NCBI GenBank assembly: GCA_948441255.1
Contig: CAOJPS010000001.1
Location: 1 to 60,741 of the forward strand
DNA from: an uncultured Eubacteriaceae bacterium
Lineage (GTDB): Bacteria > Bacillota > Clostridia > Lachnospirales > CAG-274
Reading direction: 5' to 3'
Length of the DNA: 60,741 nt
Shown here one piece after another: positions 24,830 through 49,231 of the stretch. The translations under genes and the position numbers were made by a program. The notes beneath the pieces were generated by a model. That model was not told the origin of the DNA and did not search any database. It saw only the letters and a program-made list of their open reading frames with translations. The number at the start of each line of letters is the position of its first letter. The stretch's first letter is position 1.

Positions 24830-24922
24830 TAGACTTCTTTCGAAACTTCATATTGATACAAATATTGTAGAAAATATTTTTTTGTTGGATTGGAGTAATT
24901 TTGCGGTTTCGAAAGAAGTCTA
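24830..24922. mobile_element. Family-A MITE-like element, short form (93 bp)
   Basis: TA|GACTTCTTTCGAAAC ... GTTTCGAAAGAAGTC|TA. The terminal TAG on the minus strand is the yerC stop codon. Confidence 0.8.
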
Positions 24923-25207
24923 TTGATTAAGTCTGTTTAAAATTATTTTATAGCCGCCGCTTCCATAATTTAAAGCACGGTTTACTCTGCTTATTGTAGC
25001 TGTGGAAGCTCCGGTTTTTTGGACTATAGCGCTATAGGTTTCACCGTCTGTAAGCATTTTGGCGACTTCTAATCTTTGAGCCAGGCTTTTCAGTTCGTTG
25101 ACAGTGCAGATGTCCTCAAAAAATTTATAGCATTCGGATATGTTTTTCAATTCTAATATAGAGGAAAAAAGCATATCGCAGGAAAAGGTTTTTAATTTGT
25201 CATTCAC
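24920..25207 (-). CDS. YerC/YecD family TrpR-related DNA-binding protein
   Basis: LKSLAQRLEVAKMLTDGETYSAIVQKTGASTATISRVNRALNYGSGGYK. Confidence 0.85.
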   Translation of the reverse strand: MNDKLKTFSCDMLFSSILELKNISECYKFFEDICTVNELKSLAQRLEVAKMLTDGETYSAIVQKTGASTATISRVNRALNYGSGGYKIILNRLNQ

Positions 25208-25234
25208 AAAATCACCACCATTGCAATAGAGTAA

Positions 25235-25258
25235 TAGACTTTTTTTGAAAGAAGTCTA
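25235..25258. repeat. Family-A minimal palindrome (two terminal repeats back to back)
   Basis: TAGACTTTTTTTGAAAGAAGTCTA, read directly. Confidence 0.6.
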
Positions 25259-25627
25259 ATCAGTAACAGGCGTTTACGCAAGTTATTATCATTTTAACAC
25301 TTTAACTCTGTAAATTCAAGAAGTGTTTTTATGATATGAAAAAAATATGTAAAAGGAACTTTTCTTTTGTGCATATTTACCAAAGAGTTATTTTTGATAA
25401 ATATTCGTCAAAATAGTTGTACGTATACGTATTTATTTTTGCTGTTAGTATTTATATGGGGTTAAAAAGTTGAAATATACTTATGTTATTAAAGTTTAAT
25501 GAGTTTTTTTTCTGGAGTTTTTTGTATGATATTCGTACAGAAAATGTTTTTTGAGCGAACAATAAAATATTACTTTTTTAAGTTGATTTATGCGTTTTGT
25601 ACAAAAGGGAGAAAAAAAGCCGGGTTA

Positions 25628-25656
25628 TTGACGAGGGTATTTTTGGTATGATAATA
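25628..25656 (+). promoter_or_regulatory. Candidate promoter for the pectinesterase gene (TTGACG-16 nt-GATAAT)
   Basis: Hexamers read directly. If it is used, the family-A element at 25673-25843 lies in the 5' UTR. Confidence 0.3.
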
Positions 25657-25672
25657 TTATGATAAGTCATAA

Positions 25673-25843
25673 TAGACTTCTTTCGAAACTCCATGTTGAT
25701 ATAAGTATCGTTATAAAAAAATATTTCACTCAATGTTTTTTTTACGCTTTCGGCGTTTAAAAAGCAAAACGCCTAACGCTTCACATTGAATAAAATATTT
25801 TTTTGTTGGATTGATGTAATTTTACGGTTTCGAAAGAAGTCTA
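25673..25843. mobile_element. Family-A MITE-like element, long form (171 bp)
   Basis: It has the same TA-flanked 15-17-bp terminal inverted repeats and an internal hairpin GGCGTTT-n7-AAACGCC. Confidence 0.8.
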
Positions 25844-25905
25844 ATGTTAAACAAAAATGGGTTTGTTTGACTTGATTATATAATAATTTAAAGGGAGGAA
25901 AAAAG

Positions 25906-28900
25906 ATGAACAAACAGATTAGACGTTATTTAAGCGCTGTTATCGCTATGGCGCTTATGTTTACAAGCGTGTTTTCCAATGTTGTTTTGGCGGAAGAAGA
26001 AACCGTTGGTATTGAGGACGTTTCGGCAGACGAGAATGCGGATTTAGGCGGAGATTCGGAAGACGCTGACATTAATGGGGAAACCGATGAAGCAACAGAA
26101 GATGTACAAGATGACAAGGATACGGAGGATGTAATTGAAGACGGGGCGCTTGATCTCGCGGCGGTTACTTATGATGATACGGATATAAGCCTTGCCGCGG
26201 CGGCAACTTATGAGGACTTCGTTAAGCAGTTTGACACGGCTCAGGGCGGTACGCCTGTTGCTGTTGGCGAAACAAAAACTTATACTATTCACAGAACGGA
26301 TTCAAGTCAGGAAGCGATATCATTATCAAACGGTTCTAAAGAAGTCGGCGGAATTTGGTTTGAAGCTACGGCAAGCGGAAGCAAATTACAGGATAACGGC
26401 GTGTCAAACGGTGTTCAGGTTGGAACAAATACAGTGCTGTATGTTCCTGTGAACGGAAAGTCAAATATTACGTTTACTACAGGATATAATACCGCGACTG
26501 TAAAGGTTACTGATGAACTTGGATATGACGATTCATTTGATATTAATCAAAGCGCCTGGGGACCAGATATTTATGAGTATACGGGAAAATCAACAACTGT
26601 CGTTAAGTTTACTATCAGCAGCGGAAGTATATATATAAAAACTATTGATGCTGTTTCTGAAGGTGTGCAGGAAGGTCCGGAACCTGTAACTTGGGAAAAG
26701 AGAGATTTCGCTCTCAATATTAATGGAACAAGTGTTAATGTTGAGGGAGCGAATAAGAAAAGCGGTTCCGCGACAATTACTATTGATGACACAGACGCTG
26801 AAATAGTTTCGGCGGAAGCTAAAGAGGCTTCAATTAAACTTAATCTTGGCGGAAAAGCTTTAAGTTCTGATATGGTTTCGACAACTACTGAAGGTATTGA
26901 GATAAGTGTTGAGGGCGATAATGTGGTTGTAAGTTTTACGGGACAAACAATTGAGCCTTTGACCTATACTATTTCTATAGCTGATTACTCAACGGAAATT
27001 AAAAGCGCGGAGGAATTCGCGGCGAAATTTGATGAGACAAAGGGCGGTACTCCTGTTACTGTTGAAGAGGAATATACATATAACTTTGGAGGACTTATAT
27101 ACGACGGCGGTTATTTTAAAAAAGCCTCAGAAGCTGGAGAAACAAATAAAATGTGGGTTGACGCTACTACAGGCAGCGGATTGAGAAATAACGGCGATAA
27201 TTGCCAGGTTGGCATAGGAGCGGTATTTTATATACCTGTAAATGGGAAAACCACATTAACTTTTAATACTTACGGCGGAGTATACGGCGAAGGTACTTTT
27301 AAAATCAGTGATTCCACTGGTGAATATACTGAACAGAATTTTTCAACTACAGGAGCAGGAGATACAACTGACCAGTTTGTGTATGATGGAAAATCAAAAA
27401 CAGTAATTAAACTTGACCTTACAGGAGCGGGAGCAAAAGGATTTTATTTGAAGAGCATTAAAGCTGTTTCTGAGGGCGTGCAGGCAGGTCCTACTTGGGA
27501 AAAGAGAGATTTCGCTCTAAGTATCAACGGAACAAACGTTAATGTTGAGGGAGCGGCAACCGAAAGCGGCTCGGCAAAAATCACTATTGATGACACAGAC
27601 GCTTCGGTAGTTTCGGCAAAGGCTAAAGAGGCTTCATTGAAACTTAACCTTGGCGGAAAAGCTTTAAGTTTTGATATGGTTTCGACAACTACGGAGGGTA
27701 TTTCAACAAGTGTTGAGGGCAATAATGTGGTTGTAAGTTTTACGGGGCAAACAATCGAGCCTTTGACTTATACTATAAAAGTAATTGATTACTCAACAGA
27801 AATTAAAAGCGCAGAGCAATTCGCGGCGCAGTTTGACGAAACAAAGGGAGGTACTCCTGTTGCTGTTGGAGAAGAAAAAACATATACTCTTGAGGTTACA
27901 GACGCAAGCAAAGGCGTGACTATTGAGGGAAGCGCTCAGGAAGTTTCCGGAATTTGGGTTGACGCCGCAAATGGAAAATTTGATAACGTCGCAACGGGCA
28001 GACTTGGAAACGGGGCACAGTTAAACGGAGGTACGGTTATTTATGTTCCCGTAAACGGAAAATCAACTATTATATTTAGTACGGGATATAACAACGCTTC
28101 AGTGGATGTTTCTGACGACCTTGAATATGAGGATTCATTTAGTATCGCTCAAGGCGGCTGGGGAACAGACACTTATGAATATATTGGAAAATCGAAAACA
28201 GTTGTTAAGTTTACTCTTAAAGGTCAGCTGTATATAAAAAATATTAAGGTCACCTCTGAGGGAGTTCAGGAGGGAGATGTTAAAACCTGGGAAAAAAGAG
28301 ATTTCAGCTTTAAAATTAACGGGGTGCCTGTTAATGTTACAGGTGCGGATAAAAAAGCTGAATCGGCAGTGATTGACCCAACTAATATAACTGTTGTTTC
28401 CGCTTCGTCAACAGACGCTTATCTTAGACTTGACCTTGGCGGAAAAGAACTGACGAAAGAATTGATTACGGAACTTACGGAAGGCACAGAGGCTGATATT
28501 GTTGACGGAAATGTGGTTATAAGCTTTGTGGGCGCTACAGTTGAGCCTAAAACATTTACTTTTAAAATGGTTGACTCGAGTATTGCCCTGGAACCTGTGG
28601 CAGGTGAAACTTATACCTATGATTTTACAAAAGGTGTTGTTCTTCCGGCTTCTGTAGGAAAGGTTAATACATTTGTTACTGATGACGGACTTATGACTAT
28701 TAACGGCGGCGGTGAATTATATTATTATAATACCCACGGTATCGCTATGTATGATGGAAACAGCTTTGAAATTAAAGTGGCTGGCGACGCTTCCGTTTCG
28801 TTTGGCTGTTGTACTTACGGTTCGGCTAAGACTATGACGGCGGCTGTGAAGGACGGAAACGGAGTTGTAACTCCTCTGAGCGATGATATCTCCGGTTCGT

Positions 28901-31842
28901 CAAATAACGGTATAAGAGGAGAGGGAGAAGCTGTTATTTTCTCTTACAAAGGAGAGCCGACAACACTTGTGTTTACTGTTGGAGCGGCAGGAGAAGGTTA
29001 TCTTCACTCTATAACTGTTCAGAACGTAAAAACAAACCTTGATATCGAAAATAACGGTAAAATTGACGTTTGGGATTTTGGCGCTTATCAGATGGATTCT
29101 GAAAAATATAATAATCTGCTTAACGCTGACGTGATTAACGGCTGGTATAATGGTGTTGCCGCGGGAACAGCGGGAGTTAATTTTGTTGAAACATTTACCG
29201 CGGGAAATCTCTCTTGGACTGGTAAATCAAATAACAGATTAAGAACAACAAACACAGCGCTTACACGTACTGACGAGGGTACTAGCGTAACATCAATTAA
29301 GGGATTTGACGCGGCGAAACTGAATATTAACGGCTGTATTTATGTGAACAGTTCTTCCGGCGGAGGTTCTTTCGCTCTTGATTTGCTTAAAGATGATGTG
29401 GTTTATGTTTATGTTAAGATGGATAACGGTGATGACTTTATTACATTTACCAAAGTTGGAAATACTTCTCCAAACGCTTCTGTTAAAGCCGCTATAGACG
29501 GAAGTATTGTTAAATTTATCGCTCCTGAAACGGGAACATATATGATTACTGATACTACGGAAGCCGGAAAAGCGAGATATTATCGCATTACAAGAGAACA
29601 CGCTGAATATGTTACACTTAAAGGTGTTCTTGATGTTCCGGAAGATATGGCGTCTGATTATGAGATTATAATTAGAAACTCTGAAACAAAAGCGGAAACT
29701 GCCGCTCAGATAGACGAAAACGGAAATTACAGCGCTGAACTTTCGGCAGGATATGATTATGAAATAAGACTTGGCAACGCTAAAGGATTTAGAATTTCTA
29801 AAGGAAATAAAATAATTATTGACGGTTCGTCGAAAGAAGTTGTAAATGATATTAAAGTGGTTCCCGTTAATTATATTACATATTCGGGTACACTTTCTGG
29901 ATTTGACGCTGGATATGATATTTCAAAAGCGGAATTTTACTATGAGCCTGTTGATAATGATGATAAACTTAGTTATGGAAACGCTGAATTTGTTATTGAC
30001 GAAAATGGAAAATATACTGTTAAGCTTGCTGAAAATATTACTTACAGACTTGTTATGAAAAATGTGAACGATTATGAGTCTGTTTTGGGCGGTGAAATTA
30101 CCGCTGAGGGCGATAAAAAAGTTGATGACAGCATAGAATGCGTATATGGAGATATTAACGGCGATAATTATCTTACGGCGTCCGATGTCGCTATGGTGCT
30201 TTCTTACACTCTTTCCCCTGATAAAGAGGGATTGTTTACAGATAAACAGTTTAAAGCGGCGGAAGTTGACGGAACTTATCCTATAACGGTGAATGACGCT
30301 TCACTTATTTTGCAGAAGGTTCTTAATTCAAAAAATGAATTCCCTGTTGTTTTGAACGGAGGAGTTATCAGCGGCGGAGATAAAGTTAATTCTAATATTG
30401 AGGTTGCCGCTAAGGATGTTTATACTATTACGGGAAGTTTTGTGACTTCAGACGGCGGAACCGTAAATGTGAGCGGTTTGACATTTACAAGACTTGACGA
30501 CGGATATGTTTATAACGCTGAAATTACTGGCGGAGTCTACAGCGTTAAACTTAGAGACGGCGATTATGAGATTTCCGCTTCCACGGAAGATTCTTATAAA
30601 TCGGCAAGCCATATTGTTGTTAATGGCGCTGACGCTGTTAAGGATATTTATTTCCTTTCCACAAGCGTAACTAAGATTCCTTACGCTAAAGACGTTTATG
30701 TTGACAATGAAGCAGGGGATTATCATTACGCTACTCTTAAAGAGGCTATTGACGCTGTTAATAATATGGATAAAACTCCTTCAAGCGAGGCTGAAAGAAT
30801 TACAATTCATATTGCTCCGGGAACATACAGAGCGCAGTATTCGCTTACTATGCCTTATGTTTCTCTTGTAAATACTGACCCGAGCCAGAAAGTTTTGGTT
30901 ACTTGGTATTATGGTATTGGATATAAATATTACAGCGCCGATTCTTCAGGATTGTATAACCCTATTAACGCCGCTGACAAGTATCTTAAAAATGGAAAGT
31001 CAACTCCATCAACTTCAGACGTTAAACAATGGGGCGCTTCATTCTTTATTCAGGCGACAGCTACTGATTTCCGTGCGGAAAATATATATTTTGAAAACTC
31101 ATTTAACAAGTATATTACACAAGAGGAAATTGATGATGGTGTTGAGCCTAATTTAGCTCAAGGTATAAGATTTGACAGAACTAATTTAAACGCTGACGTG
31201 AAGAGCAAAGCGGCTACGGAAAGAGCCGCGGCTATAGTCGCTTTGGCTGACAGAGCGGAATTTTACAATTGTACGTTTAGTTCTAGCCAAGATACGCTGT
31301 ATATGGGCGGAGGTACTCATCAGTATTATAATAACTGCTTTATTGAGGGTATGACAGATTATATATTTGGCGACGGTGAAATTGTGTTTGACAAGTGTAC
31401 TCTTAATTTCTGCGGATACAGCGACAGCACGATTGGCGGATATATTACGGCTACAAGAGTAGAATCCGGCGGAGAAGGATATCTCTTTAAAGACTGTGAT
31501 ATTACAAGAAACAGCGATGAAGGTATTAAAGTTGGAACAGGATACCTTGGAAGACCTTGGAATCAGAATGCTACAGTTAAATTTATCAATACGCAAATTG
31601 AAAACAAAAAAGCTGATAAATCAAATGCTGAAGATTCGGAAGACCTTATAAATAAAAGAGGCTGGAGCGATTGGGATTCTGGAGTTACCGCTGATAAAGC
31701 TAATTATTATCAGTATAATATGACTTACGGGGATAACGAATGGAAAATGGATAAAGGTACAGAACTTACCCAAGAAGAAGCTGACGCTGTTAATATGACA
31801 GATTATTTTGGAGGCTGGACTCCCGCTCATTATGGTGAATAA
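25906..31842 (+). CDS. Secreted 1978-aa cellulosomal pectin methylesterase (CE8) with three N-terminal ~265-aa modules, Ig/CarbopepD-like repeats and an internal type-I dockerin
   Basis: Signal peptide MNKQIRRYLSAVIAMALMFTSVFSNVVLA. The dockerin is GDINGDNYLTASDVAMVL...AEVDGTYPITVNDASLILQKVL (~30142-30333). CE8 motifs are IHIAPGTYRAQ, SSQDTLY, DYIFGDG and YLGRPW (~30721-31839). Confidence 0.9.
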   Translation: MNKQIRRYLSAVIAMALMFTSVFSNVVLAEEETVGIEDVSADENADLGGDSEDADINGETDEATEDVQDDKDTEDVIEDGALDLAAVTYDDTDISLAAAATYEDFVKQFDTAQGGTPVAVGETKTYTIHRTDSSQEAISLSNGSKEVGGIWFEATASGSKLQDNGVSNGVQVGTNTVLYVPVNGKSNITFTTGYNTATVKVTDELGYDDSFDINQSAWGPDIYEYTGKSTTVVKFTISSGSIYIKTIDAVSEGVQEGPEPVTWEKRDFALNINGTSVNVEGANKKSGSATITIDDTDAEIVSAEAKEASIKLNLGGKALSSDMVSTTTEGIEISVEGDNVVVSFTGQTIEPLTYTISIADYSTEIKSAEEFAAKFDETKGGTPVTVEEEYTYNFGGLIYDGGYFKKASEAGETNKMWVDATTGSGLRNNGDNCQVGIGAVFYIPVNGKTTLTFNTYGGVYGEGTFKISDSTGEYTEQNFSTTGAGDTTDQFVYDGKSKTVIKLDLTGAGAKGFYLKSIKAVSEGVQAGPTWEKRDFALSINGTNVNVEGAATESGSAKITIDDTDASVVSAKAKEASLKLNLGGKALSFDMVSTTTEGISTSVEGNNVVVSFTGQTIEPLTYTIKVIDYSTEIKSAEQFAAQFDETKGGTPVAVGEEKTYTLEVTDASKGVTIEGSAQEVSGIWVDAANGKFDNVATGRLGNGAQLNGGTVIYVPVNGKSTIIFSTGYNNASVDVSDDLEYEDSFSIAQGGWGTDTYEYIGKSKTVVKFTLKGQLYIKNIKVTSEGVQEGDVKTWEKRDFSFKINGVPVNVTGADKKAESAVIDPTNITVVSASSTDAYLRLDLGGKELTKELITELTEGTEADIVDGNVVISFVGATVEPKTFTFKMVDSSIALEPVAGETYTYDFTKGVVLPASVGKVNTFVTDDGLMTINGGGELYYYNTHGIAMYDGNSFEIKVAGDASVSFGCCTYGSAKTMTAAVKDGNGVVTPLSDDISGSSNNGIRGEGEAVIFSYKGEPTTLVFTVGAAGEGYLHSITVQNVKTNLDIENNGKIDVWDFGAYQMDSEKYNNLLNADVINGWYNGVAAGTAGVNFVETFTAGNLSWTGKSNNRLRTTNTALTRTDEGTSVTSIKGFDAAKLNINGCIYVNSSSGGGSFALDLLKDDVVYVYVKMDNGDDFITFTKVGNTSPNASVKAAIDGSIVKFIAPETGTYMITDTTEAGKARYYRITREHAEYVTLKGVLDVPEDMASDYEIIIRNSETKAETAAQIDENGNYSAELSAGYDYEIRLGNAKGFRISKGNKIIIDGSSKEVVNDIKVVPVNYITYSGTLSGFDAGYDISKAEFYYEPVDNDDKLSYGNAEFVIDENGKYTVKLAENITYRLVMKNVNDYESVLGGEITAEGDKKVDDSIECVYGDINGDNYLTASDVAMVLSYTLSPDKEGLFTDKQFKAAEVDGTYPITVNDASLILQKVLNSKNEFPVVLNGGVISGGDKVNSNIEVAAKDVYTITGSFVTSDGGTVNVSGLTFTRLDDGYVYNAEITGGVYSVKLRDGDYEISASTEDSYKSASHIVVNGADAVKDIYFLSTSVTKIPYAKDVYVDNEAGDYHYATLKEAIDAVNNMDKTPSSEAERITIHIAPGTYRAQYSLTMPYVSLVNTDPSQKVLVTWYYGIGYKYYSADSSGLYNPINAADKYLKNGKSTPSTSDVKQWGASFFIQATATDFRAENIYFENSFNKYITQEEIDDGVEPNLAQGIRFDRTNLNADVKSKAATERAAAIVALADRAEFYNCTFSSSQDTLYMGGGTHQYYNNCFIEGMTDYIFGDGEIVFDKCTLNFCGYSDSTIGGYITATRVESGGEGYLFKDCDITRNSDEGIKVGTGYLGRPWNQNATVKFINTQIENKKADKSNAEDSEDLINKRGWSDWDSGVTADKANYYQYNMTYGDNEWKMDKGTELTQEEADAVNMTDYFGGWTPAHYGE
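26209..28575 (+). repeat. Three tandem ~0.8-kb coding modules inside the pectinesterase gene
   Basis: Modules start at about 26209, 27007 and 27811 (..F(V/A)(K/A)(Q/K)FD(T/E).(Q/K)GGTPV..). Sub-blocks ~26692-27065 and ~27495-27868 are near-identical at the DNA level by eye. Confidence 0.8.
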
Positions 31843-31870
31843 ACAGATGAGAAATTAAAGACAAATAAGA

Positions 31871-31906
31871 AAAAGACTCATTCCTTTAAAGGTTTGAGTC
31901 TTTTTT
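31871..31906 (+). terminator. Pectinesterase gene terminator (AAAAGACTCA-n14-TGAGTCTTTTTT)
   Basis: Stem plus T6 read directly, 29 nt after the stop codon. Confidence 0.8.
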
Positions 31907-31930
31907 GATTTTATGGAGGACTTATGATTC

Positions 31931-32125
31931 ACATTCGTTTCATAAATTAAAACCACGGGGCTTTGCCCCGCATCCCACAAGCTAATCAGTGTTTTTGGCT
32001 TCGCCAAAAATCGGCTTACGCCGACCGCACTTCTTTGCGGCACATATTAAAAAGGCTTGACCTAAATTTTATAAGGCAAAACTTTGTTTTGCCAGAGAAA
32101 AACTAAAATTATCGGCTAAATTAAT
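31931..32125 (-). repeat. Composite repeat F1 (a C-type unit with a family-B unit inserted at 31983-32043)
   Basis: It is the reverse complement of 36081-36212, plus a 61-bp B insertion inside the AAGCCTTTTTAAAGGCTT hairpin. Confidence 0.8.
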
Positions 32126-32283
32126 TTTAATTGCAGTATTTTTAAATTGCCGCAAGGTATATTATTACATCAAAAATTTATGAGATGAACGTGCTTATGA
32201 TTTTTATGTGCTTGTGCCGGCATTATTATTGTGTTATAATATCCTTATAATGGTTTACGCGGAATGGAAAGGAGCTTTCCTTT

Positions 32284-33726: not shown

Positions 33727-33760
33727 AAATTTGTTTAAAATATAAAAAGTCTGTCTATAA

Positions 33761-33930
33761 TAGACTTCTTTCGAAACCGCAAAATTACTCCAATCCAACA
33801 AAAAAATATTTTATTCAATGTGAAGCGAAAGGCGTTTTGCTTTTTAAACGCCGAAAGCGTTAAGAAACATTGTAGAAAATATTTTTTTCTAACAATATTT
33901 GTATCAATATGAAGTTTCGAAAGAAGTCTA
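33761..33930. mobile_element. Family-A MITE-like element, long form (170 bp), inverted relative to 25673-25843
   Basis: TA|GACTTCTTTCGAAACCGCAAAATTACTCC ... GAAGTTTCGAAAGAAGTC|TA. Confidence 0.8.
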
Positions 33931-33949
33931 GTAATAAGGAGGTATTTTT

Positions 33950-36080: not shown

Positions 36081-36212
36081 TTAATTTAGCCGATAATTTT
36101 AATTTTTCTCCGGCAAAACGCAGTTTTGCCTTATAAAATTTAGGTCAAGCCTTTTTAAAGGCTTGTGGGGTGTGGGGCAAAGCCCCACGGTTTTAATTTA
36201 TGAAACGACCGT
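36081..36212 (+). repeat. Composite repeat F2 (uninterrupted C-type unit)
   Basis: ..GCCGATAATTTTAATTTTTCTCCGGCAAAACGCAGTTTTGCC..AGGTCAAGCCTTTTTAAAGGCTTGTGGGGTGTGGGGCAAAGCCCCACGGTTTTAA.. Confidence 0.8.
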
Positions 36213-36323
36213 GTTTCAATTAATATAGATACTTGCCAATTGTTTCATTTTGTAGTATTATAGGATAGTATGATTTTGTTTTGTACAATCTTATAACTAT
36301 AAAAGAAAAGAGGAGAATCTTAA

Positions 36324-37781
36324 ATGAAGGTTTTTAAAAAATTTATTGTGATTTTAATTGCTGTTTCGGCAATTGTTTCGAGCGTTGCTGTTTTTGCTTT
36401 TGACGGTGATGAGGAAATGAAATCTATTTCAATAAGTTTTTCGGAAATTAAGAAAAACATTGAAAAGAAAAATAAAGGCAATATTGTTCTTGATGTTTTT
36501 CTTGACAAGGATTTTGATGGTTGTTATGGAAATCAGCTTGATGAGGTTTCTAAGTATATTTATGACATAATTACACAGCCGGAGATAATTGAGATGTCAA
36601 AGGACGGAATAAGTTCTTTGGGTGATGCTGAGGTAAAAGGCAGAGATGGTAAGTGGATTGAATTGACTGGCAAAGCGACGTTTAAGGAAATAGAGGATTC
36701 TAATTTTAAACAGTTATTTTATGCTGTCGCGGCGCTTGATTATGATATGCCAGAGGTTTTTTGGATTGATATTGAAAAAATTGGCGTTAATATGGTGGGA
36801 ATAGGAAATAGAGTATGGGTTGCTATTCAAGTTTTCGGCGATTATGATAATTATTATTGTGATGGATATTCTTCAAAGAAGGACGTTGAAAGAGATATTG
36901 AAAAAATTGATGAGGTCCGCAAAGATGTTCATAAGGAAATTGAGGGCAGGGATATATATAATAAACTGAGATATATTAATAGTTTTCTTGTTGAAAAAAA
37001 TGAGTATAATAGACTTCTTGGCGAAGCTGATTTGGAACTTGACGACAGACTTTGGAAATGCGTCAGCGCACTTGTTTATGGAAGCACCGATTTGAAAAAT
37101 GCTTTAAATCCTGTTTGTGAGGGATATTCTAGAGCGTTTAAAATTCTTTGTGAAAAAGAAGGTATTCAATGTGTTCTTGCTTCGGGTATTATTCCAGCAT
37201 CTGAAGCTGACGGTGAAGGCGAGCCTCATATGTGGAATTATGTTCAGCTTGATAATGAAAAGTGGTATGCTGTTGACGTTACTTTTAATGACCCTATTTT
37301 TTCGGGCAGCAATATTACTCCTGAATTTATTGAGAAATGTAAATATAAATATTTTCTTATTGGTGAGGATAAACTTTTAAATATAAATAAAGACGAAAAT
37401 ATGGCTGTGCATTTGCCAAGCGGTGATGGAATAGCGTTTGTGGATGTTTTTGGATTAAAATATCCTTCTTTGGAAAAAGATGATTATGTATATGTTGAGC
37501 CTGACACTATAGTCACTACAGAAAATACAACTGAAATTACAACTATGGAGAGTACAACTGAAACCACTACGGAAGAAGTTACATATAAGTATGGCGATAT
37601 TGATAAAGATGGAGATGTTTCTGTTAAAGATGCCTCTGAACTTCTTGAAAGTATTTTGAAGGGAACTGTTACAGAGCACCATAAAAAATATGGAAATCTT
37701 GATAAAAGCAATACCGAGTTGACTGCCGCTGATGTTTCAATTGTGCTTCAGATTGCGCTTGATAATATTTCTTATGAATAG
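36324..37781 (+). CDS. Secreted transglutaminase-like (Cys-His-Asp) protein with a C-terminal dockerin
   Basis: It has a signal peptide. The catalytic context is CEGYSRAF (Cys), HMWNYVQL (His) and AVDVTFND (Asp). A Thr/Glu linker precedes the dockerin YGDIDKDGDVSVKDASELL...LTAADVSIVLQIAL (~37584-37778). Confidence 0.8.
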   Translation: MKVFKKFIVILIAVSAIVSSVAVFAFDGDEEMKSISISFSEIKKNIEKKNKGNIVLDVFLDKDFDGCYGNQLDEVSKYIYDIITQPEIIEMSKDGISSLGDAEVKGRDGKWIELTGKATFKEIEDSNFKQLFYAVAALDYDMPEVFWIDIEKIGVNMVGIGNRVWVAIQVFGDYDNYYCDGYSSKKDVERDIEKIDEVRKDVHKEIEGRDIYNKLRYINSFLVEKNEYNRLLGEADLELDDRLWKCVSALVYGSTDLKNALNPVCEGYSRAFKILCEKEGIQCVLASGIIPASEADGEGEPHMWNYVQLDNEKWYAVDVTFNDPIFSGSNITPEFIEKCKYKYFLIGEDKLLNINKDENMAVHLPSGDGIAFVDVFGLKYPSLEKDDYVYVEPDTIVTTENTTEITTMESTTETTTEEVTYKYGDIDKDGDVSVKDASELLESILKGTVTEHHKKYGNLDKSNTELTAADVSIVLQIALDNISYE

Positions 37782-38007
37782 ACTTCTTTCGAAACCGCAA
37801 AATTACTCCAATCCAACAAAAAAATATTTTATTCAATAGTCAGCGCTTTTGCTGTGCAAAAGCCGGCTTTGCCGTCCGCACTTCTTTGCGGCGCTAATTT
37901 AGCGAAAGGCATTTTGCTTTTTAAATGCCGAAAGCGTTAAGAAACATTGTAGAAAATATTTTTTTCTAACAATATTTGTATCAATATGGAGTTTCGAAAG
38001 AAGTCTA
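37779..38007. mobile_element. Family-A MITE-like element, long form, carrying a nested family-B variant (37837-37894)
   Basis: Its first three nt (TAG) are the stop codon of the preceding gene. The interior equals 33761-33930 plus a 58-bp insert TAGTCAGCGCTTTTGCTGTGCAAAAGCCGGCTTTGCCGTCCGCACTTCTTTGCGGCGC. Confidence 0.8.
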
Positions 38008-38009
38008 AT

Positions 38010-38067
38010 AAAGGAAATACCGACAAATTAAAAAATTATTTTTAATATCCTTCGTGCGGTGTTTCAT
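38010..38067. repeat. Family-E palindromic unit
   Basis: AAAGGAAATACCGACAAATTAAAAAATTATTTTTAATATCCTTCGTGCGGTGTTTCAT. Confidence 0.75.
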
Positions 38068-39586: not shown

Positions 39587-39991
39587 ATGTTTAAATTATC
39601 CGATACAAGCAAAAGGCTTGTTAAAGTTATGCTTGCTATTTCTTTGATTGGTTTGGGCGCTGGTGTTATTATTACTCAAATATGGTTTCCGTCTGAAACT
39701 TTTAAATATGTATATGGAACTGTTTTTGGTATGATATTTTCGGTGCTTAAATTGATGCTCCTTGAAAGAACGCTGAATAAATCCGCTGATTTTCCAGAGG
39801 GCCAGGCTCAAAATTATGTAAGGCTTCATTATATGCTTAGATACTTTCTTACTGGCGCTGTTTTGGTTGTTGCCGCTGTAAAGGGAGGGGTTTCCTCTAT
39901 TTTAGGGGTTGTGGTTTGTTTGGCGTCTTTAAGACCGGCGGTTCATATTGTGAACTGGCAATATAAAAAACAAGAAAAACAGGATTTTTAA
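39587..39991 (+). CDS. atpI: ATP synthase subunit I
   Basis: A four-TM small protein at the operon position before atpB. The start is uncertain (TTG 39572 or ATG 39587). Confidence 0.65.
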   Translation: MFKLSDTSKRLVKVMLAISLIGLGAGVIITQIWFPSETFKYVYGTVFGMIFSVLKLMLLERTLNKSADFPEGQAQNYVRLHYMLRYFLTGAVLVVAAVKGGVSSILGVVVCLASLRPAVHIVNWQYKKQEKQDF

Positions 39992-40057
39992 AAATTGATG
40001 TCTATAGGGAATTGATTCACGGAAATTAATTTTCACGTCCGCCGCAGGCGATTTAAA

Positions 40058-40498
40058 GTTTTTGGGCAAGCCTTTTTCAATATGTGCCGCAAAGAAGTGC
40101 GGACGGCTTGCGGTTTCGGGCAGCGCCCGACTAATATTTTAAATAAAATTATATTAACGTGAGTTCGATGAAATTTTATATTAATTTGACCCTTTTTCTA
40201 TCGAAACGGGAACGCTTTCCCGATAAAAAGGGTCCAAACCCCCAAAAATGCTCCCTGCGCATTAAAAACCTTGAGGTTTCACCCTGGCTGCATGGGCGAG
40301 CAACAAAATCTTTGATTTTGTGACCAGCCTCAAACTCCACAAACATAGTCAGTGTTTTTGGCTTCGCCAAAAATCGGCTTACGCCGACCGCACTTCTTTG
40401 CGGCACATATTGAAAAAAGTTTGACAAAAACTTTTGCGCGAAACTATGTTTCGCTGAGGTTCACTGTAATTTTTCACCGAACTCACGTTATATTATAA
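40058..40498. repeat. Repeat mosaic in the atpI-atpB spacer
   Basis: All elements read directly. They are a divergent family-B unit (40084-40134, inverted) and a ~350-bp segment bounded by inverted repeats AACGTGAGTTCG / CGAACTCACGTT (40149-40167 and 40478-40498). That segment contains a 47-nt long hairpin (40188-40234), a canonical B unit (40346-40406) and a D module (40417-40462). Confidence 0.75.
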
Positions 40499-40718
40499 AA
40501 AATAAAAAATTCTGTTTAATTTTTCAAAAATTGATTTCCGTGGGATTGATTTTTTAGATATTGCATTTTTATGATTTTAGTGATAAAATTTTATCAAAAG
40601 GGTTTTTTAGGAATAAATATGCTTTTAGACCTTTTTATGTTTATTTTAGTTCTTCTGGAGGGTAAATTATTGCTCTTCTTTAGATAATCAAAAAAATGAG
40701 GAAGGAGGTATAATTACC

Positions 40719-41492: not shown

Positions 41493-41517
41493 TTGTATCT
41501 AAATTTTTTATTTTTAA

Positions 41518-41817
<300 letters not shown>

Positions 41818-41868
41818 TATTCTGAAAATAAGACCTTATAATTAAAACCGAAAGGAGGTTTCCGTCTT

Positions 41869-42387
41869 TTGGAAGATTTTATACTTAGTTTAGACATAAA
41901 CTTGCTTAAAGATGTGGCTTTTCAGCTTTTAAATACGGTTATTCTCTGTGCTGTTTTATCTTATCTTCTTTATAAGCCCGTTAAAAACTTTCTTGCCGCC
42001 AGACGAGAGAGAATAGCGGGGCAGATTGATTCTGCTGAAAATCAGCTTGCGGAAGCTAATAAAATGAAAGCTTTGTATGAGGAAAAGCTTAAATCTATTG
42101 ATAAAGAAAGAGAAAATATTTTGAGCGACGCGAGAACAAAGGCTGTTAAAAGAGAACAGGAAATTATCGCGGAGGCTAAAGAAGAGGCTGACGCTCTTAA
42201 AAACAGAGCTATGGTCGATATTCAGAGAGAACAGGAAAAAGCCAAGGACGAAATCAAAAAGCAGATTATTGAAGTTTCTTCTATTATGGCAAGTAAGTTT
42301 GTTGCCGTTTCCATTAACCAAAGTCAGCAGGATAAACTGGTTGATGAGGTTATTTCAGATTTGGGGGAAGTTAAATGGCTCAGTTAG
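41869..42387 (+). CDS. atpF: F0F1 ATP synthase subunit b
   Basis: TTG start after AAAGGAGG. An N-terminal TM segment is followed by a long charged helix. Confidence 0.9.
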   Translation: MEDFILSLDINLLKDVAFQLLNTVILCAVLSYLLYKPVKNFLAARRERIAGQIDSAENQLAEANKMKALYEEKLKSIDKERENILSDARTKAVKREQEIIAEAKEEADALKNRAMVDIQREQEKAKDEIKKQIIEVSSIMASKFVAVSINQSQQDKLVDEVISDLGEVKWLS

Positions 42388-42920
42388 CGGCGGGAAGGTA
42401 TGCCAACGCTCTTTTTGATTTGGCTTTGGAGTCCTCTAAACTTGATGTTTTTGAGGAGGAAATTAAACTTGTTCTTGATACTATGAAAAATGATAAGGAA
42501 TTTTTGCTTGTTTTAAATCATCCCCAGATTTCTGGCGGGGAAAAAATGAGTATTTTGGAAAATGCCTTTAAAGGCAAAGTTTCTGATGAAATTATGGGAT
42601 TGTTTTCTGTTGCTTTGAATAAAAACAGAGAAACCCAGATTATTGATATGCTTGAGATTTTTGTTAAAAAGGCAGAGGAGTATAAGGGTGTTGAAACCGC
42701 TGTTGTTACCTCCGCCAAACCTTTGAGCGAGGGTCAGATTGAGAGCATTAAAGAAAAATTATCTAAAAATTTGAATAAGCAGATTTTTATTCAGGCGGAG
42801 GTTGATGAGTCCCTTTTGGGCGGAGTTTGTGTTAAGGTTGCGGGTCATATTATTGACGGTAGCATTAAAAAACAGCTTGACGACCTCAAAAAACAGCTTT
42901 TGAATATACATCTTGCGTAG
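42375..42920 (+). CDS. atpH: F0F1 ATP synthase subunit delta
   Basis: RYANALFDLALE, LLGGVCVKVAGHIIDGSIK. Confidence 0.9.
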   Translation: MAQLAAGRYANALFDLALESSKLDVFEEEIKLVLDTMKNDKEFLLVLNHPQISGGEKMSILENAFKGKVSDEIMGLFSVALNKNRETQIIDMLEIFVKKAEEYKGVETAVVTSAKPLSEGQIESIKEKLSKNLNKQIFIQAEVDESLLGGVCVKVAGHIIDGSIKKQLDDLKKQLLNIHLA

Positions 42921-42933
42921 TAAAGGAGTGTAA

Positions 42934-44445
<1,512 letters not shown>

Positions 44446-44461
44446 ATAGAGAGGTGATATT

Positions 44462-45322
44462 ATGGCATCAATGCGTGATATTAAGCGCAGAATTAAAAGT
44501 GTCAATAGCACCCAGCAAATTACCAAAGCTATGAATCTTGTCGCGAGCTCTAAGCTTACGAGGGCAAAAAACAGGCTTATGGACACTCGTCCTTTCTTTC
44601 AGGAAACAAGAAAAGTTATCGCCGGCGTTGTTAATGGCTCTAAAGGAATTTCTCACCCGTTTTTGGAACAGAGAGAGGTTAAGAAGAAAGCTGTTATCCT
44701 TATTACAGGGGACAGGGGGCTTTGCGGAGGCTATAACGCCAATGTGAGCAAAGCGGCTATGGAATGCGTTGACGATATTAATAATGTTTCCGCCGTGACT
44801 GTCGGAAGCAAAGGAAGGGAATTCTTTAAAAGAAGGGGAGTTAATATTCTTGAGTCTTATACGGGAATTTCCGAAAACCCCAGTTATTCTGACGCTTTGA
44901 AAATTGGACAGTTGGCACTTGATTTATTTACTAAGGGAGAAGCTGACGAGGTTTATCTCGCTTATACGGAGTTTATTTCCACTCTTTCCTCAGAGCCTAA
45001 GCTTATTAAGGTTCTTCCTGTTGACGTAAATGAATTTACTGATGATAACACCGATTCGGAGCAGGCGCTTACTATTTATGAGCCTGACGAGGAGGCTGTT
45101 TTGGAATATGTTATTCCTAAATATGTTAATACCGTTATATTCGGCGCTATGGTTGAATCAGCTGTATGTGAACTCGGCGCGAGAATGACCGCTATGGATT
45201 CCGCTACAGAAAACGCTTCGGAGATGATTGACACACTTAATCTTCTCTATAACAGGGCAAGACAGGGCGCTATTACTCAGGAAATTACCGAAATTGTCGG
45301 CGGCAGCGGTATTTATGATTAA
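44462..45322 (+). CDS. atpG: F0F1 ATP synthase subunit gamma
   Basis: MASMRDIKRRIKSVNSTQQITKAMNLVASSKL, ITQEITEIVGG. Confidence 0.95.
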   Translation: MASMRDIKRRIKSVNSTQQITKAMNLVASSKLTRAKNRLMDTRPFFQETRKVIAGVVNGSKGISHPFLEQREVKKKAVILITGDRGLCGGYNANVSKAAMECVDDINNVSAVTVGSKGREFFKRRGVNILESYTGISENPSYSDALKIGQLALDLFTKGEADEVYLAYTEFISTLSSEPKLIKVLPVDVNEFTDDNTDSEQALTIYEPDEEAVLEYVIPKYVNTVIFGAMVESAVCELGARMTAMDSATENASEMIDTLNLLYNRARQGAITQEITEIVGGSGIYD

Positions 45323-45334
45323 GAAAAGGAGTGA

Positions 45335-46732
<1,398 letters not shown>

Positions 46733-46753
46733 TTAAGGTAACGGGTGATTTAT

Positions 46754-47161
46754 ATGGCAGAAAATAAAATACGATTACGTATTGTTACGCCTGTAAGGGA
46801 GCTTTATGACAAGGAAGCCGAAATGGTAATCATGCGTTCCTCAATCGGTGATATTGGTATTTTACACGGTCATCAGCCATTGACGACAACTTTGGATTAT
46901 GGTTTTTTACGTATAATTAATGGTGATGAGGAAGTTAGAGCGACTATTTTTGGAGGGTTTGCCAGCGTGGATTCCAGAGGTATTACAATTCTTTCTGACG
47001 CCGCTGAGTGGCCTGATGAAATTGATGTCCAAAGGGCTATGGCCGCTAAGGAAAGAGCTGAAAGCCGTATTAGGAGCAATGACGGAAATATTGATATTGC
47101 CAGAGCCGAGCTTGCTTTAAGGCGTGCGTTGATTAGGCTTGAAGCCAAAGAGAAAAAATAA
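46754..47161 (+). CDS. atpC: F0F1 ATP synthase subunit epsilon
   Basis: LRIVTPVRELYDKEAEMVIMRSSIGDIGILHGHQPL. Confidence 0.9.
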   Translation: MAENKIRLRIVTPVRELYDKEAEMVIMRSSIGDIGILHGHQPLTTTLDYGFLRIINGDEEVRATIFGGFASVDSRGITILSDAAEWPDEIDVQRAMAAKERAESRIRSNDGNIDIARAELALRRALIRLEAKEKK

Positions 47162-47191
47162 TTTACAAACGAAAGTCTTTACGTTCGTGAA

Positions 47192-47226
47192 AAAAATCTT
47201 CGGAAAAATTTTTCCGAAGATTTTTT
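47192..47226. terminator. Bidirectional terminator between atpC and the cohesin gene (AAAAATCTTCGG-n10-CCGAAGATTTTT)
   Basis: Read directly. Confidence 0.85.
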
Positions 47227-47250
47227 GCTGTATTTAAGGCTTTTATATTT

Positions 47251-47967
47251 TTACTGTTCAATGGTAATTCTTGCTCCCTGACTATATATAGGAACATTTT
47301 TAAAATTGGAATCGCGAATCATATAAAATTCCCTGTTTATAAATCCAGGTTCGATACGTATGGCAGCTTTGCCTGCCTTTACTGCTTTAAATTTTGCTCG
47401 GAATAATGTGCCGTCGCTGTTGACAATTTCGGATGTGACCTTTCCTTTAAATTCAAAGCCGTTTATTTTTTTGTTTTTAATTGATTTGCTAATTCCGTCA
47501 TTGACCAGTTTCGCGTCAATGAGCGGTATTCTTTTTTCGGAATTTTTGAGCAAAACCTCGGCGGCTGAATTCATTTCTTCTTCATCGCCTTTGACTGGAA
47601 TTATAGGGTAAGTAACTTGTGAATAAGAATCAAGGTCTAAATATGATACTTCAAAAGAATAGTCTTTAAATCCGGGATTGTTTGATATAACAAAATCTAC
47701 GTAAAATTCCTCTCCAACTTTTACAGAGTTTTTTGATGGTATTACTTTTATACAAGGCGCATCCTCAGGAAGCTCTGAAACACACATTCCTTCAAATCCG
47801 GAAGTAAGTTCCTGGTATTGCATTACTTCGGTTATTTCGATTTTTTTGCTGTTTCCAGCAGAATCAGTTATTGTTATTTCTTCCGCAAAATAAACGCCTG
47901 AATTAAGTGCTGTGACCGCGGTTATAAGTCCAATGCCCACTGCCTTTTTTATATTCATAAAAATCAC
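47251..47967 (-). CDS. Secreted single-cohesin-domain protein
   Basis: It has a signal peptide. KVIPSKNSVKVGEEFYVDFVISNNPGFKDYSFEVSY...GTLFRAKFKAVKAGKAAIRIE follows the cohesin pattern. I see no dockerin, SLH or sortase signal. Confidence 0.6.
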   Translation of the reverse strand: MIFMNIKKAVGIGLITAVTALNSGVYFAEEITITDSAGNSKKIEITEVMQYQELTSGFEGMCVSELPEDAPCIKVIPSKNSVKVGEEFYVDFVISNNPGFKDYSFEVSYLDLDSYSQVTYPIIPVKGDEEEMNSAAEVLLKNSEKRIPLIDAKLVNDGISKSIKNKKINGFEFKGKVTSEIVNSDGTLFRAKFKAVKAGKAAIRIEPGFINREFYMIRDSNFKNVPIYSQGARITIEQ

Positions 47968-48060
47968 TCCTTTTTTATAATATCGTTCTTTAGAAAATAC
48001 TGTATAAAGTATAATAAGAATAGTTTTTAAATTTAAAACTTAGTATAATTATCTTTTAAT

Positions 48061-48239
48061 TTAAGGAAATACCGCATAATTAAAAAATAAAAATAATTTT
48101 AGCGATAGCGGCAAAAAAATTTGAATGAAAGTGTTATTTTTTCAAGGAAAAAATGACACGAAACGAGAAAGCGTTCTCGTTCAAATGAAACTTTTTTTGT
48201 AAAATTATTTTTATTTCCTTTTGTGCGGTGTTTCCTTAA
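48061..48239. repeat. Family-E element, long form (179 bp)
   Basis: TTAAGGAAATACCGCATAATT ... TTGTGCGGTGTTTCCTTAA termini, with an insert related to the interior of 60561-60706. Confidence 0.8.
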
Positions 48240-48414
48240 GAAATATTGACTAAAAACGCGCGTTAAAAATCATAATTTCTTATAAATTAATTATAATTCA
48301 TTGTTATATAAAAAACAATAGTTATGTTATTTTTGTAAAATTTATGTAATATAGCTGTAAAAAAAAGGTATACTATAATTTTAAAAAAATAAATGGATTA
48401 AGCTGGAATTTATA

Positions 48415-48472
48415 TAGAAAAACACCGCACAAAGGATATAAAAAATAATTTTTTAATTTGTCGGTGTTTCTA
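48415..48472. repeat. Family-E palindromic unit
   Basis: TAGAAAAACACCGCACAAAGGATATAAAAAATAATTTTTTAATTTGTCGGTGTTTCTA. Confidence 0.75.
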
Positions 48473-48579
48473 TAAATAAAAACTTGGGGTTGTTATTATT
48501 GGGATTATAGTATATAATATAATTATAACAATTCTATGTAATATTGAGTATTTTATTTTTATGTAAAGGATTGGAATTT

Positions 48580-49113
48580 ATGCTTGAATCTTCTGTTGAA
48601 AAACTTGCGGAAAGCAAATTGACTATATTATATCTTCTTAATAAAATGGATATGCCTATGTCTAAGGGACAGATTTGCCAGTTTGCCCTTGAGGCTAATT
48701 ATATTGAGTATTTTTCTTTGCAGGGATATATTTCTGAAATGGTGGAGAGAAATTTACTTAGAGAAATCAGAGAGTCTGAAAAATTGATTTATATTAATAC
48801 TATTGAGGGGGAAAAAATGCTTTCTCTTTTTATACATAGAATTCCTAAAGATATTAAGGAAAAAGTTAGTCAATATGTTGAAAAGATGAGAAGCAAAGTT
48901 AAAAAGGAACTGGAAACAAAAGCGGTTTATTCGCATACGGGAGAAAATAATTATACTGTAGACTGTGGAATTTATGAAAATAAAAGAACCCTTATTGAGA
49001 TTAAAATAAATGTTGTTTCTAAAGAACAAGCGGTTTTAGCCTGCAAAAATTGGAAGAACAAAACCGATTCGGTATATTTGGATATTGTCACAAGCCTTTT
49101 GCGTAAAAGTTGA
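48580..49113 (+). CDS. DUF4364-family putative transcriptional regulator (PadR-like wHTH)
   Basis: KLTILYLLNKMDMPMSKGQICQFALEANYIEYFSLQGYISEMVERNLL. Confidence 0.6.
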   Translation: MLESSVEKLAESKLTILYLLNKMDMPMSKGQICQFALEANYIEYFSLQGYISEMVERNLLREIRESEKLIYINTIEGEKMLSLFIHRIPKDIKEKVSQYVEKMRSKVKKELETKAVYSHTGENNYTVDCGIYENKRTLIEIKINVVSKEQAVLACKNWKNKTDSVYLDIVTSLLRKS

Positions 49114-49151
49114 TTGTAAATTATTATTTCTTAGTTCAATCAACTTTTTTT
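49109..49151 (+). terminator. Terminator GTTGATTG-n20-CAATCAAC-T7
   Basis: Read directly. It overlaps the stop codon of the DUF4364 gene. Confidence 0.55.
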
Positions 49152-49153
49152 AT

Positions 49154-49228
49154 TATACTTCTTTCGAAACTTCATATCTATACTAATATCGACCCAAGAA
49201 AATATTTTATAGTTTCGAAAGAAGTCTA
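49154..49228. mobile_element. Family-A MITE-like element, short degenerate form (75 bp)
   Basis: TATACTTCTTTCGAAAC ... GTTTCGAAAGAAGTCTA. Confidence 0.7.
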
Positions 49229-49231
49229 TTG

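Follow-up and report, generated by a model that had tools for sequence, protein, structure and literature searches.

How a set of short, TA-flanked repeats came to lie between and at the ends of genes is the question raised by a 60,741-nucleotide stretch of an uncultured Eubacteriaceae genome, which we refer to as the window. The original prediction described these repeats (family A) as MITE-like, non-autonomous elements of IS630/Tc1-mariner affinity that duplicate a TA target and donate stop codons to two genes. We followed up each part of this description using terminus counts, alignments, profile searches and comparison with related genomes.

Copies, size classes and dispersal

Allowing up to two mismatches, the terminal sequence GACTTCTTTCGAAAC matched the window 12 times against 0.27 matches expected, a number that none of 100 shuffles reached; one of the 12, at 26332, lies inside the pectinesterase gene and was set aside as a chance match. 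Sequence reads and alignment together with this count confirmed six TA-flanked copies exactly where they had been predicted, five of them bounded by GACTTCTTTCGAAAC…GTTTCGAAAGAAGTC and one collapsed to 22 bp, and an nhmmer search with a profile of 26 long copies found no further copies in the window. The copies, delimited from their first A to their last T, are as follows:

24831..24921, + strand: copy 1, short form, 91 bp; ATT duplication at 24828-24830 and 24922-24924
25236..25257, strand not applicable: copy 2, collapsed form in the 5' region of the yerC-like gene, 22 bp; AAT flanks at 25233-25235 and 25258-25260
25674..25842, + strand: copy 3, long form, 169 bp; AAT flanks at 25671-25673 and 25843-25845
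33762..33929, - strand: copy 4, long form, 168 bp; AAT at 33759-33761 versus AGT at 33930-33932
37780..38006, - strand: copy 5, composite form, 227 bp; AAT flanks at 37777-37779 and 38007-38009
49155..49227, + strand: copy 6, short degenerate form, 73 bp; ATT flanks at 49152-49154 and 49228-49230

All are AT-rich, and with lengths of 22-227 bp, perfect 16-nt terminal inverted repeats and no ORF of at least 80 aa inside any of the six, they have the size and ends of MITEs. In copy 2 both ends are fused through their common palindromic core, TTTCGAAA, with two mismatches. Copy 4, whose flanks form an imperfect duplication with one mismatch, follows the NAPRTase stop and precedes the RBS of the fructose-1,6-bisphosphatase (FBPase) gene; it contains a terminator-like hairpin on the + strand (33820-33840). 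As RNA, copies 3 and 4 fold strongly (-52.1 kcal/mol, z = -7.7, and -51 kcal/mol, z = -7.4, respectively). Copy 5 owes about 63 extra nt to a family-B unit at about 37838-37900. The left end of copy 6 reads ATAC, with T replacing the G of AGAC, and the copy recurs with the same 118-nt intergenic gap in two same-strain ENA contigs (L204, L205), while a third (L206) stops short of the site.

Measured from G to C, family A falls into recurring classes of about 77, 93, 167 and 224 bp, and the 20-bp collapsed form is known from copy 2 only. The A::B composite is found in three further loci (L225, L231, L242) at 223-224 bp, next to 225 bp for copy 5. Alignment supports the proposal that the short forms are deletion derivatives of the long form, since they fit deletion between its internal AAAATATTTT repeats. 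Shorter forms would arise by deletion, either between these palindromic repeats or from the TTTCGAAA core of one end to that of the other, and the longer form by capture of a family-B unit; the size classes and the composite would then have spread as such.

The family is dispersed rather than confined to this region, as ends specific to family A occur on 40 stretches, and copies on more than 40 contigs, of four related MAG species, again in recurrent size classes. Window and MAG copies are 93-96% identical, compared with 72-78% for orthologous coding DNA between these genomes; among the genome contigs searched, the closest PcrA relative was 55% identical. No match was found on plasmids or phages, and a literature search for the end sequence returned nothing relevant. 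Exact-protein look-ups returned mostly same-strain contigs, in which the insertions are present or the assembly is interrupted within them. Short-read assemblies break at family A repeats, as in L121 and L122, whose ends fall within copies.

The target site and its empty counterparts

A close relative (Logan SRR15970513, DNA identity 89-95%) provided orthologous sites in contig L252. The site of copy 1 reads CTTAATC-AAT-TTCAAGG (reverse strand), with a single AAT and a gap of 94 nt, and that of copy 3 reads GTTTAAC-ATT-ATGACTT (reverse strand), with a single ATT and a gap of 172 nt. Both gaps equal the G…C core plus A, T and 3 bp. The single TA expected in an empty site was therefore found at neither locus; each empty site has one A-N-T and falls 3 nt short of the length that a TA duplication predicts, which refutes such a duplication. 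Family A is thus polymorphic for presence and absence between close relatives.

Eight paralogous empty sites in related MAGs gave the same count, each with a single A-N-T; six of them read directly as 5 extra nt in the filled site (the 3-bp duplication plus A and T), and the alignment is less clear-cut on this point for the other two (L238_535 and L212_6730). The copy 2 locus lacks a clean empty site: about 48 nt of L252 cannot be aligned with the window here, roughly 40 of them extra. In contigs L257 and L258 of the relative, both copy 5 and the neighbouring family-C element are absent, but the spacer is too diverged there to yield a base-exact empty site; a metagenome scan for the empty copy 5 site gave 0 matches. 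Orthologous pairs between CAYLJL and CATJCJ, at about 75% identity, are likewise too diverged for empty sites at base level.

The flanks of 77 elements point to the same boundary. All 77 carry A at -1 and 75 carry A at -4, with T at +1 in 74 and at +4 in 71. The central base was compared in 54 elements and was the same at -3 and +3 in 47 of them (p about 3e-9); the duplication is therefore the 3-bp A-N-T and the element AGAC…GTCT. The conspicuous TA consists of the last base of the duplication and the first base of the element. Constant bases beside a terminal repeat can thus pass for a duplication, and here it was the variable central base that exposed the real one. Bacterial IS5 transposons, like the eukaryotic Pangu elements, target 5'-ANT-3' (PMC4482050), and both the flank counts and the empty sites place family A with this type of target.

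The inner bases of the duplication behave differently from the outer ones. T>C and A>G changes at -2 and +2 occur in 9 and 15 of 77 elements, compared with 2 and 6 of 77 at the outer bases. In a subfamily with CA…TG, to which several CAYLJL copies belong, the two positions change together as an inverted repeat, which a plain 3-bp duplication does not predict. They also differ from the paralogous empty sites. It is conceivable, if unlikely, that these bases are not plain target copies, the non-transferred strand being cut by the transposase outside the element, with donor-flank nucleotides carried along and sometimes fixed at the new site. If so, the geometry of cleavage by an uncharacterised group of transposases could be read from natural copies.

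Genes beside the insertions

Copies 1, 3 and 5 adjoin the following features:

24920..25207, - strand: YerC/TrpR-like gene, Trp_repressor match; TAG stop at 24922-24920
25628..25655, + strand: promoter-like site TTGACG-16-GATAAT, a consensus match only, upstream of copy 3
25906-31842, + strand: pectinesterase gene, 1978 aa, Pectinesterase match
36324..37781, + strand: transglutaminase-like gene, Transglut_core match; TAG stop at 37779-37781

The Trp_repressor, Pectinesterase and Transglut_core assignments bear out the predicted gene names, except that Pfam finds no dockerin in the transglutaminase-like gene; a Dockerin_1 match just under the Pfam cut-off lies within the pectinesterase instead.

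The ORF ends confirm that the junction creates TAG and that two genes stop on it. The yerC-like stop is formed by the T of the duplication (24922) and the AG of copy 1 (24921-24920), and the transglutaminase-like stop likewise by the T of the duplication and the AG of copy 5. The further suggestion that the elements had entered pre-existing stop codons is wrong for the yerC-like gene. Under the A-N-T model the ancestral YerC was expected to end …NQFQGE, and exactly this was found in the homologue from the strain without the insertion (P0005), which ends …LNQFQGE and whose stop lies 2 nt before the pcrA ATG. Copy 1 thus removed four codons (FQGE) from the YerC-like protein and separated the gene from pcrA. 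For the transglutaminase-like gene the suggestion holds approximately: a homologue without the element (P0122, 89% identical and likewise 485 aa long) terminates at the same residue (…ISYE*). A general enrichment of the junction TAG as a gene stop was considered and rejected, since among 188 termini it ends a long frame at 12, compared with 20 and 23 termini that have long frames in the other two reading frames.

Copy 3 was correctly placed between the promoter-like site and the RBS of the pectinesterase gene, and the stretch with the promoter-like site is unchanged in the empty-site strain (alignment with L252). The insertion would add a 172-nt hairpin-forming leader to the pectinesterase mRNA, and copy 1 separates yerC from the pcrA RBS, which formerly abutted the yerC stop, by a hairpin-forming insert of 94 nt; both may influence expression. 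Two close relatives that differ by insertions in the pectinesterase leader and between the yerC-like gene and pcrA amount to a natural experiment. In this lineage, MITE sequence makes up part of the stop codons, 5' leaders and operon junctions.

The probable mobilising transposase, rival readings and known relatives

The window contains no transposase gene. A search for an autonomous partner with the same terminal repeats recovered a 919-bp insertion sequence (L085/L243) with ends identical to those of family A and AAT/AAT flanks, albeit of the IS5 and not the IS630 family. It encodes HTH_Tnp_4 and DDE_Tnp_1 domains, both above Pfam cut-offs, in two ORFs joined at an A-run, giving a transposase of about 260 aa between short terminal repeats. 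The two ORFs score 77.7 and 91.1 bits against NF033581 (NCBIfam transpos_IS5_4), each below the 140-bit whole-protein cut-off because the frameshift splits the gene. Exact family A ends also bound L244 and L110, and L246 and L250 differ by 1-2 mismatches per end. All transposases found between family A ends have the IS5-family signature (HTH_Tnp_4 plus DDE_Tnp_1, NF033581) and none qualifies as IS630. The insertion sequences found have only their ends in common with family A, the subterminal sequence being different. ISWpi1 was rejected as a partner, the Wolbachia locus (L104) carrying a solitary end only. Other Clostridia, Lactobacillales and Rickettsiales harbour related insertion sequences whose ends are the same or nearly so, and 142-bp elements in other phyla gave no Rfam match; the same 15-nt end in several bacterial phyla points to a widely exchanged IS5 lineage.

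Family A is very probably a group of MITEs mobilised in trans by an IS5-family DDE transposase and inserting with a 3-bp A-N-T duplication. The mobilising enzyme would be encoded by an insertion sequence about 920 bp long, in which a frameshift at an A-run joins two reading frames. The element proper is AGACTTCTTTCGAAAC…GTTTCGAAAGAAGTCT, with its 16-nt terminal inverted repeat; its target, within a Y-ANT-R context, is A-N-T, in most cases AAT or ATT, and those 3 bp are duplicated. That the transposase acting in this genome is of this kind is suggested by the shared ends.

The IS630/Tc1-mariner reading, with an element GAC…GTC inserted at TA and TA duplicated, draws on the TA that adjoins the G…C core in all window copies and at 80 of the 139 termini that match exactly. 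It is nonetheless highly improbable, being already refuted by the orthologous sites in L252; moreover, the equality of -3 and +3 would need a tandem ANTANT target, and insertion sequences with these ends encode transposases of the other family. More difficult to separate is a version of the same MITE in which TA (or CA/TG) are the outermost element bases and only the central N of A-N-T is duplicated, as the filled and empty sequences are then the same as under the 3-bp model. Such a 1-bp duplication would explain the inverted-repeat covariation at -2/+2 and the mismatch to paralogous empty sites, but the almost invariant -4 and +4 are what copies of the same target bases should give, and we know of no 1-bp duplication reported for IS5-family elements. 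A 3-bp ANT has been reported for that family (PMC4482050), and we consider the 1-bp version quite unlikely.

It might also be argued that the copies are not mobile at all and represent a conserved functional palindrome that serves as structured RNA, as a terminator or as an operator (of the adjacent TrpR-like YerC regulator, for instance). The strong folds (z from -3.7 to -7.7), the terminator-like central hairpin of the long form and the clustering of three copies around the yerC-like gene fit such a role. However, no Rfam match was found in the window, copies lie in both orientations and in unrelated contexts, close relatives differ in their presence together with the duplications, and the same ends bound transposase genes. 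As an origin this reading is contradicted and hardly credible, although the copies may have acquired a secondary, co-opted role. Family A, as a set of IS5-type MITEs, is an ordinary kind of bacterial mobile DNA that has been moving recently.

Several known repeats invite comparison. REP/BIME elements are GC-rich palindromes of 20-40 bp mobilised by a Y1 (RAYT) transposase without target duplication; family A, which is AT-rich and has 3-bp duplications and the ends of DDE insertion sequences, does not belong with them, and the 'widespread MITE' of Cardinium is IS982-derived and unrelated. RUP (Streptococcus pneumoniae, IS630-Spn1) and the Correia elements (Neisseria) are TA-duplicating MITEs that, like family A, are of this size, lie between genes, give transcripts that form hairpins and insert beside or into the ends of genes, whereas family A duplicates A-N-T and has the ends of an IS5-family transposase. 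Closer are the IS5-associated MITEs BrickBuilt, MITE293 and MITE700 of Porphyromonas gingivalis and ATR of Neisseria with ISNme1 (PMC4596501). Like family A, these are short, AT-rich and non-coding, with ends identical or nearly identical to those of an IS5-family insertion sequence around an unrelated interior (type II MITEs), and the end motifs, GAGACCTTTGCAAAA compared with AGACTTCTTTCGAAAC, are similar in form. Family A differs from them in its uncultured Clostridia host, its end sequence and its strict 3-bp A-N-T duplication, those of BrickBuilt being reported as irregular (PMC4596501). The 919-bp, two-ORF partner L085, classed by NCBIfam transpos_IS5_4 and Pfam domains alone, resembles ISCaa2 and ISCaa3 (ISL2-group/ISWpi1-like, IS5 family), which are 914-916 bp long with two ORFs and a -1 frameshift (PMC3196728). 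Among eukaryotic PHIS elements, whose transposase class is related to IS5, Pangu duplicates ANT, and PIF/Harbinger with its Tourist MITEs has TWA (PMC4482050). Family A shares the A-N-T consensus of Pangu, but in a bacterial host, with a far smaller partner and without a second (Myb-like) protein.

Architecture of the family A copies

The 15-nt terminus GACTTCTTTCGAAAC has 12 matches in the window with up to two mismatches (0.27 expected; no shuffle reaches 12), the twelfth of which, at 26332 inside the pectinesterase ORF, is a chance match. Reading of the sequence and an alignment of the copies bore out the six predicted elements:

24830-24922, copy 1
25235-25258, copy 2
25673-25843, copy 3
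33761-33930, copy 4, inverted relative to the others
37779-38007, copy 5, likewise inverted, holding an extra family B unit (~63 nt, 37838-37900)
49154-49228, copy 6, with a G>T change in its left end

A search of the window with a profile of 26 long copies found no further family A members. The long form spans 167 bp, from G to C. It is a palindrome in three tiers: the terminal stem (17 bp), a stem of 13 bp formed by AAAAAAATATTTT, and a GC hairpin at the centre. RNA folds reach -52 kcal/mol (z = -7.7) for copy 3 and -51 kcal/mol (z = -7.4) for copy 4. AAAATATTTT is self-complementary and therefore also a direct repeat, and copy 1 matches the remainder expected after deletion between two such repeats, as had been proposed for the short forms. 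The terminal-repeat core TTTCGAAA is also palindromic; end-to-end recombination predicts a 20-bp palindrome, GACTTCTTTCGAAAGAAGTC, and copy 2 is this palindrome with two C>T changes.

Target-site duplication

The original prediction had family A duplicating a TA dinucleotide. Flank statistics were computed over 77 elements:

Position -1, A in 77/77 elements
Position +1, T in 74/77 elements
Position -4, A in 75/77 elements
Position +4, T in 71/77 elements
Positions -3 and +3, same base in 47/54 TA…TA elements (A/A 28, T/T 18, G/G 1; p ~3e-9)

The pattern is A-N-T-A/GAC…GTC/T-A-N-T (slashes mark the ends), and the identical N on both sides makes A-N-T a direct repeat of 3 bp; the element between the two repeats starts in A and finishes in T. 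Given these flanks, a TA duplication would demand a tandem ANTANT target.

We then joined the flanks of each element and searched for uninterrupted paralogues, which yielded eight empty sites. In six of these comparisons the filled site is clearly 5 nt longer outside the G…C core (3 + 1 + 1), while L238_535 and L212_6730 align less cleanly. The A-N-T model also predicted that the yerC-like ORF without copy 1 would read …AAT CAA TTT CAA GGA GAA TAA. A protein search returned a homologue in a close relative (P0005, 97% identical) that ends …LNQFQGE and is encoded on contig L252 (Logan SRR15970513), itself 89-95% identical to the window. Alignment of L252 with the window gave two empty sites, each a single A-N-T:

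Copy 1, CTTAATC-AAT-TTCAAGGAG, gap 94 nt = 89 + 2 + 3
Copy 3, GTTTAAC-ATT-ATGACTT, gap 172 nt = 167 + 2 + 3

As the TA model demands 3 more nt per empty site than L252 has, TA duplication is refuted.

Where the window holds copy 2 (25208-25290), L252 (~2080-2160) has ~48 unalignable nt, roughly 40 extra, so the strains bear different small inserts at one spot upstream of the yerC-like gene. The unalignable stretch contains TAGTCAATCAACTTGA, a motif of yet another repeat that is also a family A insertion target (L226).

Position -2 departs from T in 9/77 elements and +2 from A in 15/77, mostly to C and G, compared with only 2/77 and 6/77 departures at -4 and +4. Several copies in the CAYLJL MAG read CA…TG, and in three comparisons with paralogous sites the altered base does not match the empty site. 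A possible but improbable account is that TA forms part of the element and N alone is duplicated; this would yield the same sequences as the 3-bp model and would explain both the departures and the CA…TG copies. In another reading of low probability, bases of the donor flank may sometimes travel with the element, which would explain the departures.

Stop codons and neighboring genes

The yerC-like ORF (24920..25207, minus strand) stops at 24922-24920 and the transglutaminase-like ORF (36324..37781, plus strand) at 37779-37781, as predicted. The gene names agree with Trp_repressor, Transglut_core and Pectinesterase, except that a Pfam search of the transglutaminase-like gene gave no dockerin; a Dockerin_1 match lies in the pectinesterase, just under Pfam's cut-off.

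Both stops had been tentatively ascribed to insertion into the TA of a pre-existing stop codon. In the relative, the yerC ORF is four codons longer and its TAA lies 2 nt ahead of the pcrA ATG. The window's TAG combines the T of the duplication with AG of copy 1, and a 94-nt hairpin-forming insert from this copy precedes the pcrA RBS. Copy 1 removed four codons and supplied TAG; it therefore landed outside any pre-existing stop codon. For the transglutaminase-like gene, overlap with an old stop holds approximately: the relative's homologue without copy 5 (P0122, 485 aa as well, 89% identity) terminates at the same position, …ISYE-stop, and the duplication on the right points to GAA TAA as the ancestral sequence, so that the insertion left the protein unchanged. 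The copy 5 spacer is too diverged from the relative for a base-exact empty site. When all loci are pooled, open frames of at least 60 codons end on the junction TAG at 12/188 termini, against 20 and 23 termini at which equally long frames run up to the junction in the other two frames; stop donation is thus a by-product and is not enriched.

A promoter-like site, within a stretch that the relative shares unchanged, precedes copy 3 by ~15 nt; if this site is used, the pectinesterase leader would gain 172 nt of structured RNA. In copy 3 the long form's terminator-like hairpin lies on the antisense strand, and in copy 4 on the sense strand. Any effects of these insertions on expression are inferred.

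Candidate partner transposases, dispersal and related repeats

On its own, the 15-mer is found in many phyla, mostly as inverted pairs spaced 50-300 bp. In a rumen Clostridia MAG (L085), exact family A ends enclose a 919-bp element with two ORFs that meet at an A8 run; the ORFs contain HTH_Tnp_4 and DDE_Tnp_1 domains, with matches to NCBIfam transpos_IS5_4. An insertion sequence on L244 has exact ends (95% aa identity), those on L246 (Lactobacillales, 73%) and L250 differ at 1-2 positions in each end, and on L110 (Rickettsiales) the left end is exact and leads into a transposase with 50-68% identity over aligned segments. Among annotated relatives, the best is a protein labelled 'IS5 family transposase' from a Legionella anisa plasmid (59.7% identity). 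No IS630-type gene was seen between family A ends among the elements examined; the transposase genes there are IS5-type, contrary to the proposed IS630 affinity. These insertion sequences share only their ends with family A. The full-length L085 element lies directly upstream of an IS200-like tnpA (1051-1305; MTEYLHGVHTVQDIKYHIVWITKYRYKIL…).

The same 15-nt ends also enclose an element of ~142 bp, nearly constant in length, in several bacterial groups, among others at:

L044 1499-1640
L087 7210-7351
L102 3756-3897
L053 2643-2784
L081 4559-4700
L049 6070-6211
L071 4930-5070

Its interior is alignable across Rickettsiales, Holosporaceae, Legionella, Chthoniobacterales and Burkholderiales (at most 77% identity between groups), and Rfam contains nothing that matches it; the element may represent a MITE common to protist-associated bacteria of several phyla.

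A family-A-specific pattern (terminus + TYCATRT), run on the genome collection, matched 40 stretches from four MAG species, which shows the family to be dispersed in related genomes:

CAYLJL01, labelled Lachnospiraceae, ~30 contigs
CATJCJ01, labelled Eubacteriales, ~10 contigs
CAJTVH01 and CANOGI01, one contig each

Sizes of 77, 93, 166-167 and 223-225 bp recur, the last being the A::B composite of copy 5 (CAYLJL loci L225, L231, L242); deletion forms and the composite, the latter as a unit, have therefore spread in these forms. Between the window copies and those in these MAGs identity is 93-96%, whereas orthologous coding DNA among these genomes reaches only 72-78%, a disparity that implies recent exchange or recent common activity. 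The CAYLJL MAG also holds head-to-tail arrays (L207 146-318; L230 822-904) of a 61-bp unit made up of the left half of family A (terminus + TTCATATTGATACAAATATTGT…TTTTCTACATTA). Same-strain short-read metagenome contigs terminate within family A copies (L121 at window 33878, L122 at 25804); these repeats thus fragment assemblies of this lineage.

The window contains three further repeat families:

Family B, GC-richer (…GCCGACCGCACTTCTTTGCGGCAC…), free or nested inside family A: 22301-22463, 31984-32084, 37838-37900, 40055-40107, 40347-40447
Family C, palindromic, intergenic (GAAACACCGCACAAAGGA…AAAAATAATTTTT…TGCGGTGTTTC): 17148-17215, 20641-20699, 38014-38064, 48053-48121, 48192-48243, 48408-48470, 57823-57870, 58768-58812, 60554-60715
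Family D, GC-rich hairpin then T-run (CTTGTGGGGTGTGGGGCAAAGCCCCACGGTTTTAA), which looks like a terminator: 22566-22604, 31925-31982, 36161-36218, 55101-55139

Family C also occurs in related MAGs (95% identity to L021), and copies of family A and family C lie within one another (L230, L034). Since the relative lacks family C beside the copy 5 site (L257/L258), it is probably a second mobile family.

Altogether, the MITE reading was right and the TA/IS630 mechanism wrong, given the A-N-T empty sites and the IS5-type transposases between the same ends. Family A belongs with the MITEs of IS5 type: it duplicates 3 bp (A-N-T) on insertion and has moved recently within an uncultured lineage of Clostridia. 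A 5'-ANT-3' target is common to bacterial IS5 transposons and eukaryotic Pangu (PMC4482050). IS5-type MITEs are already known in kind, and family A is a new representative.
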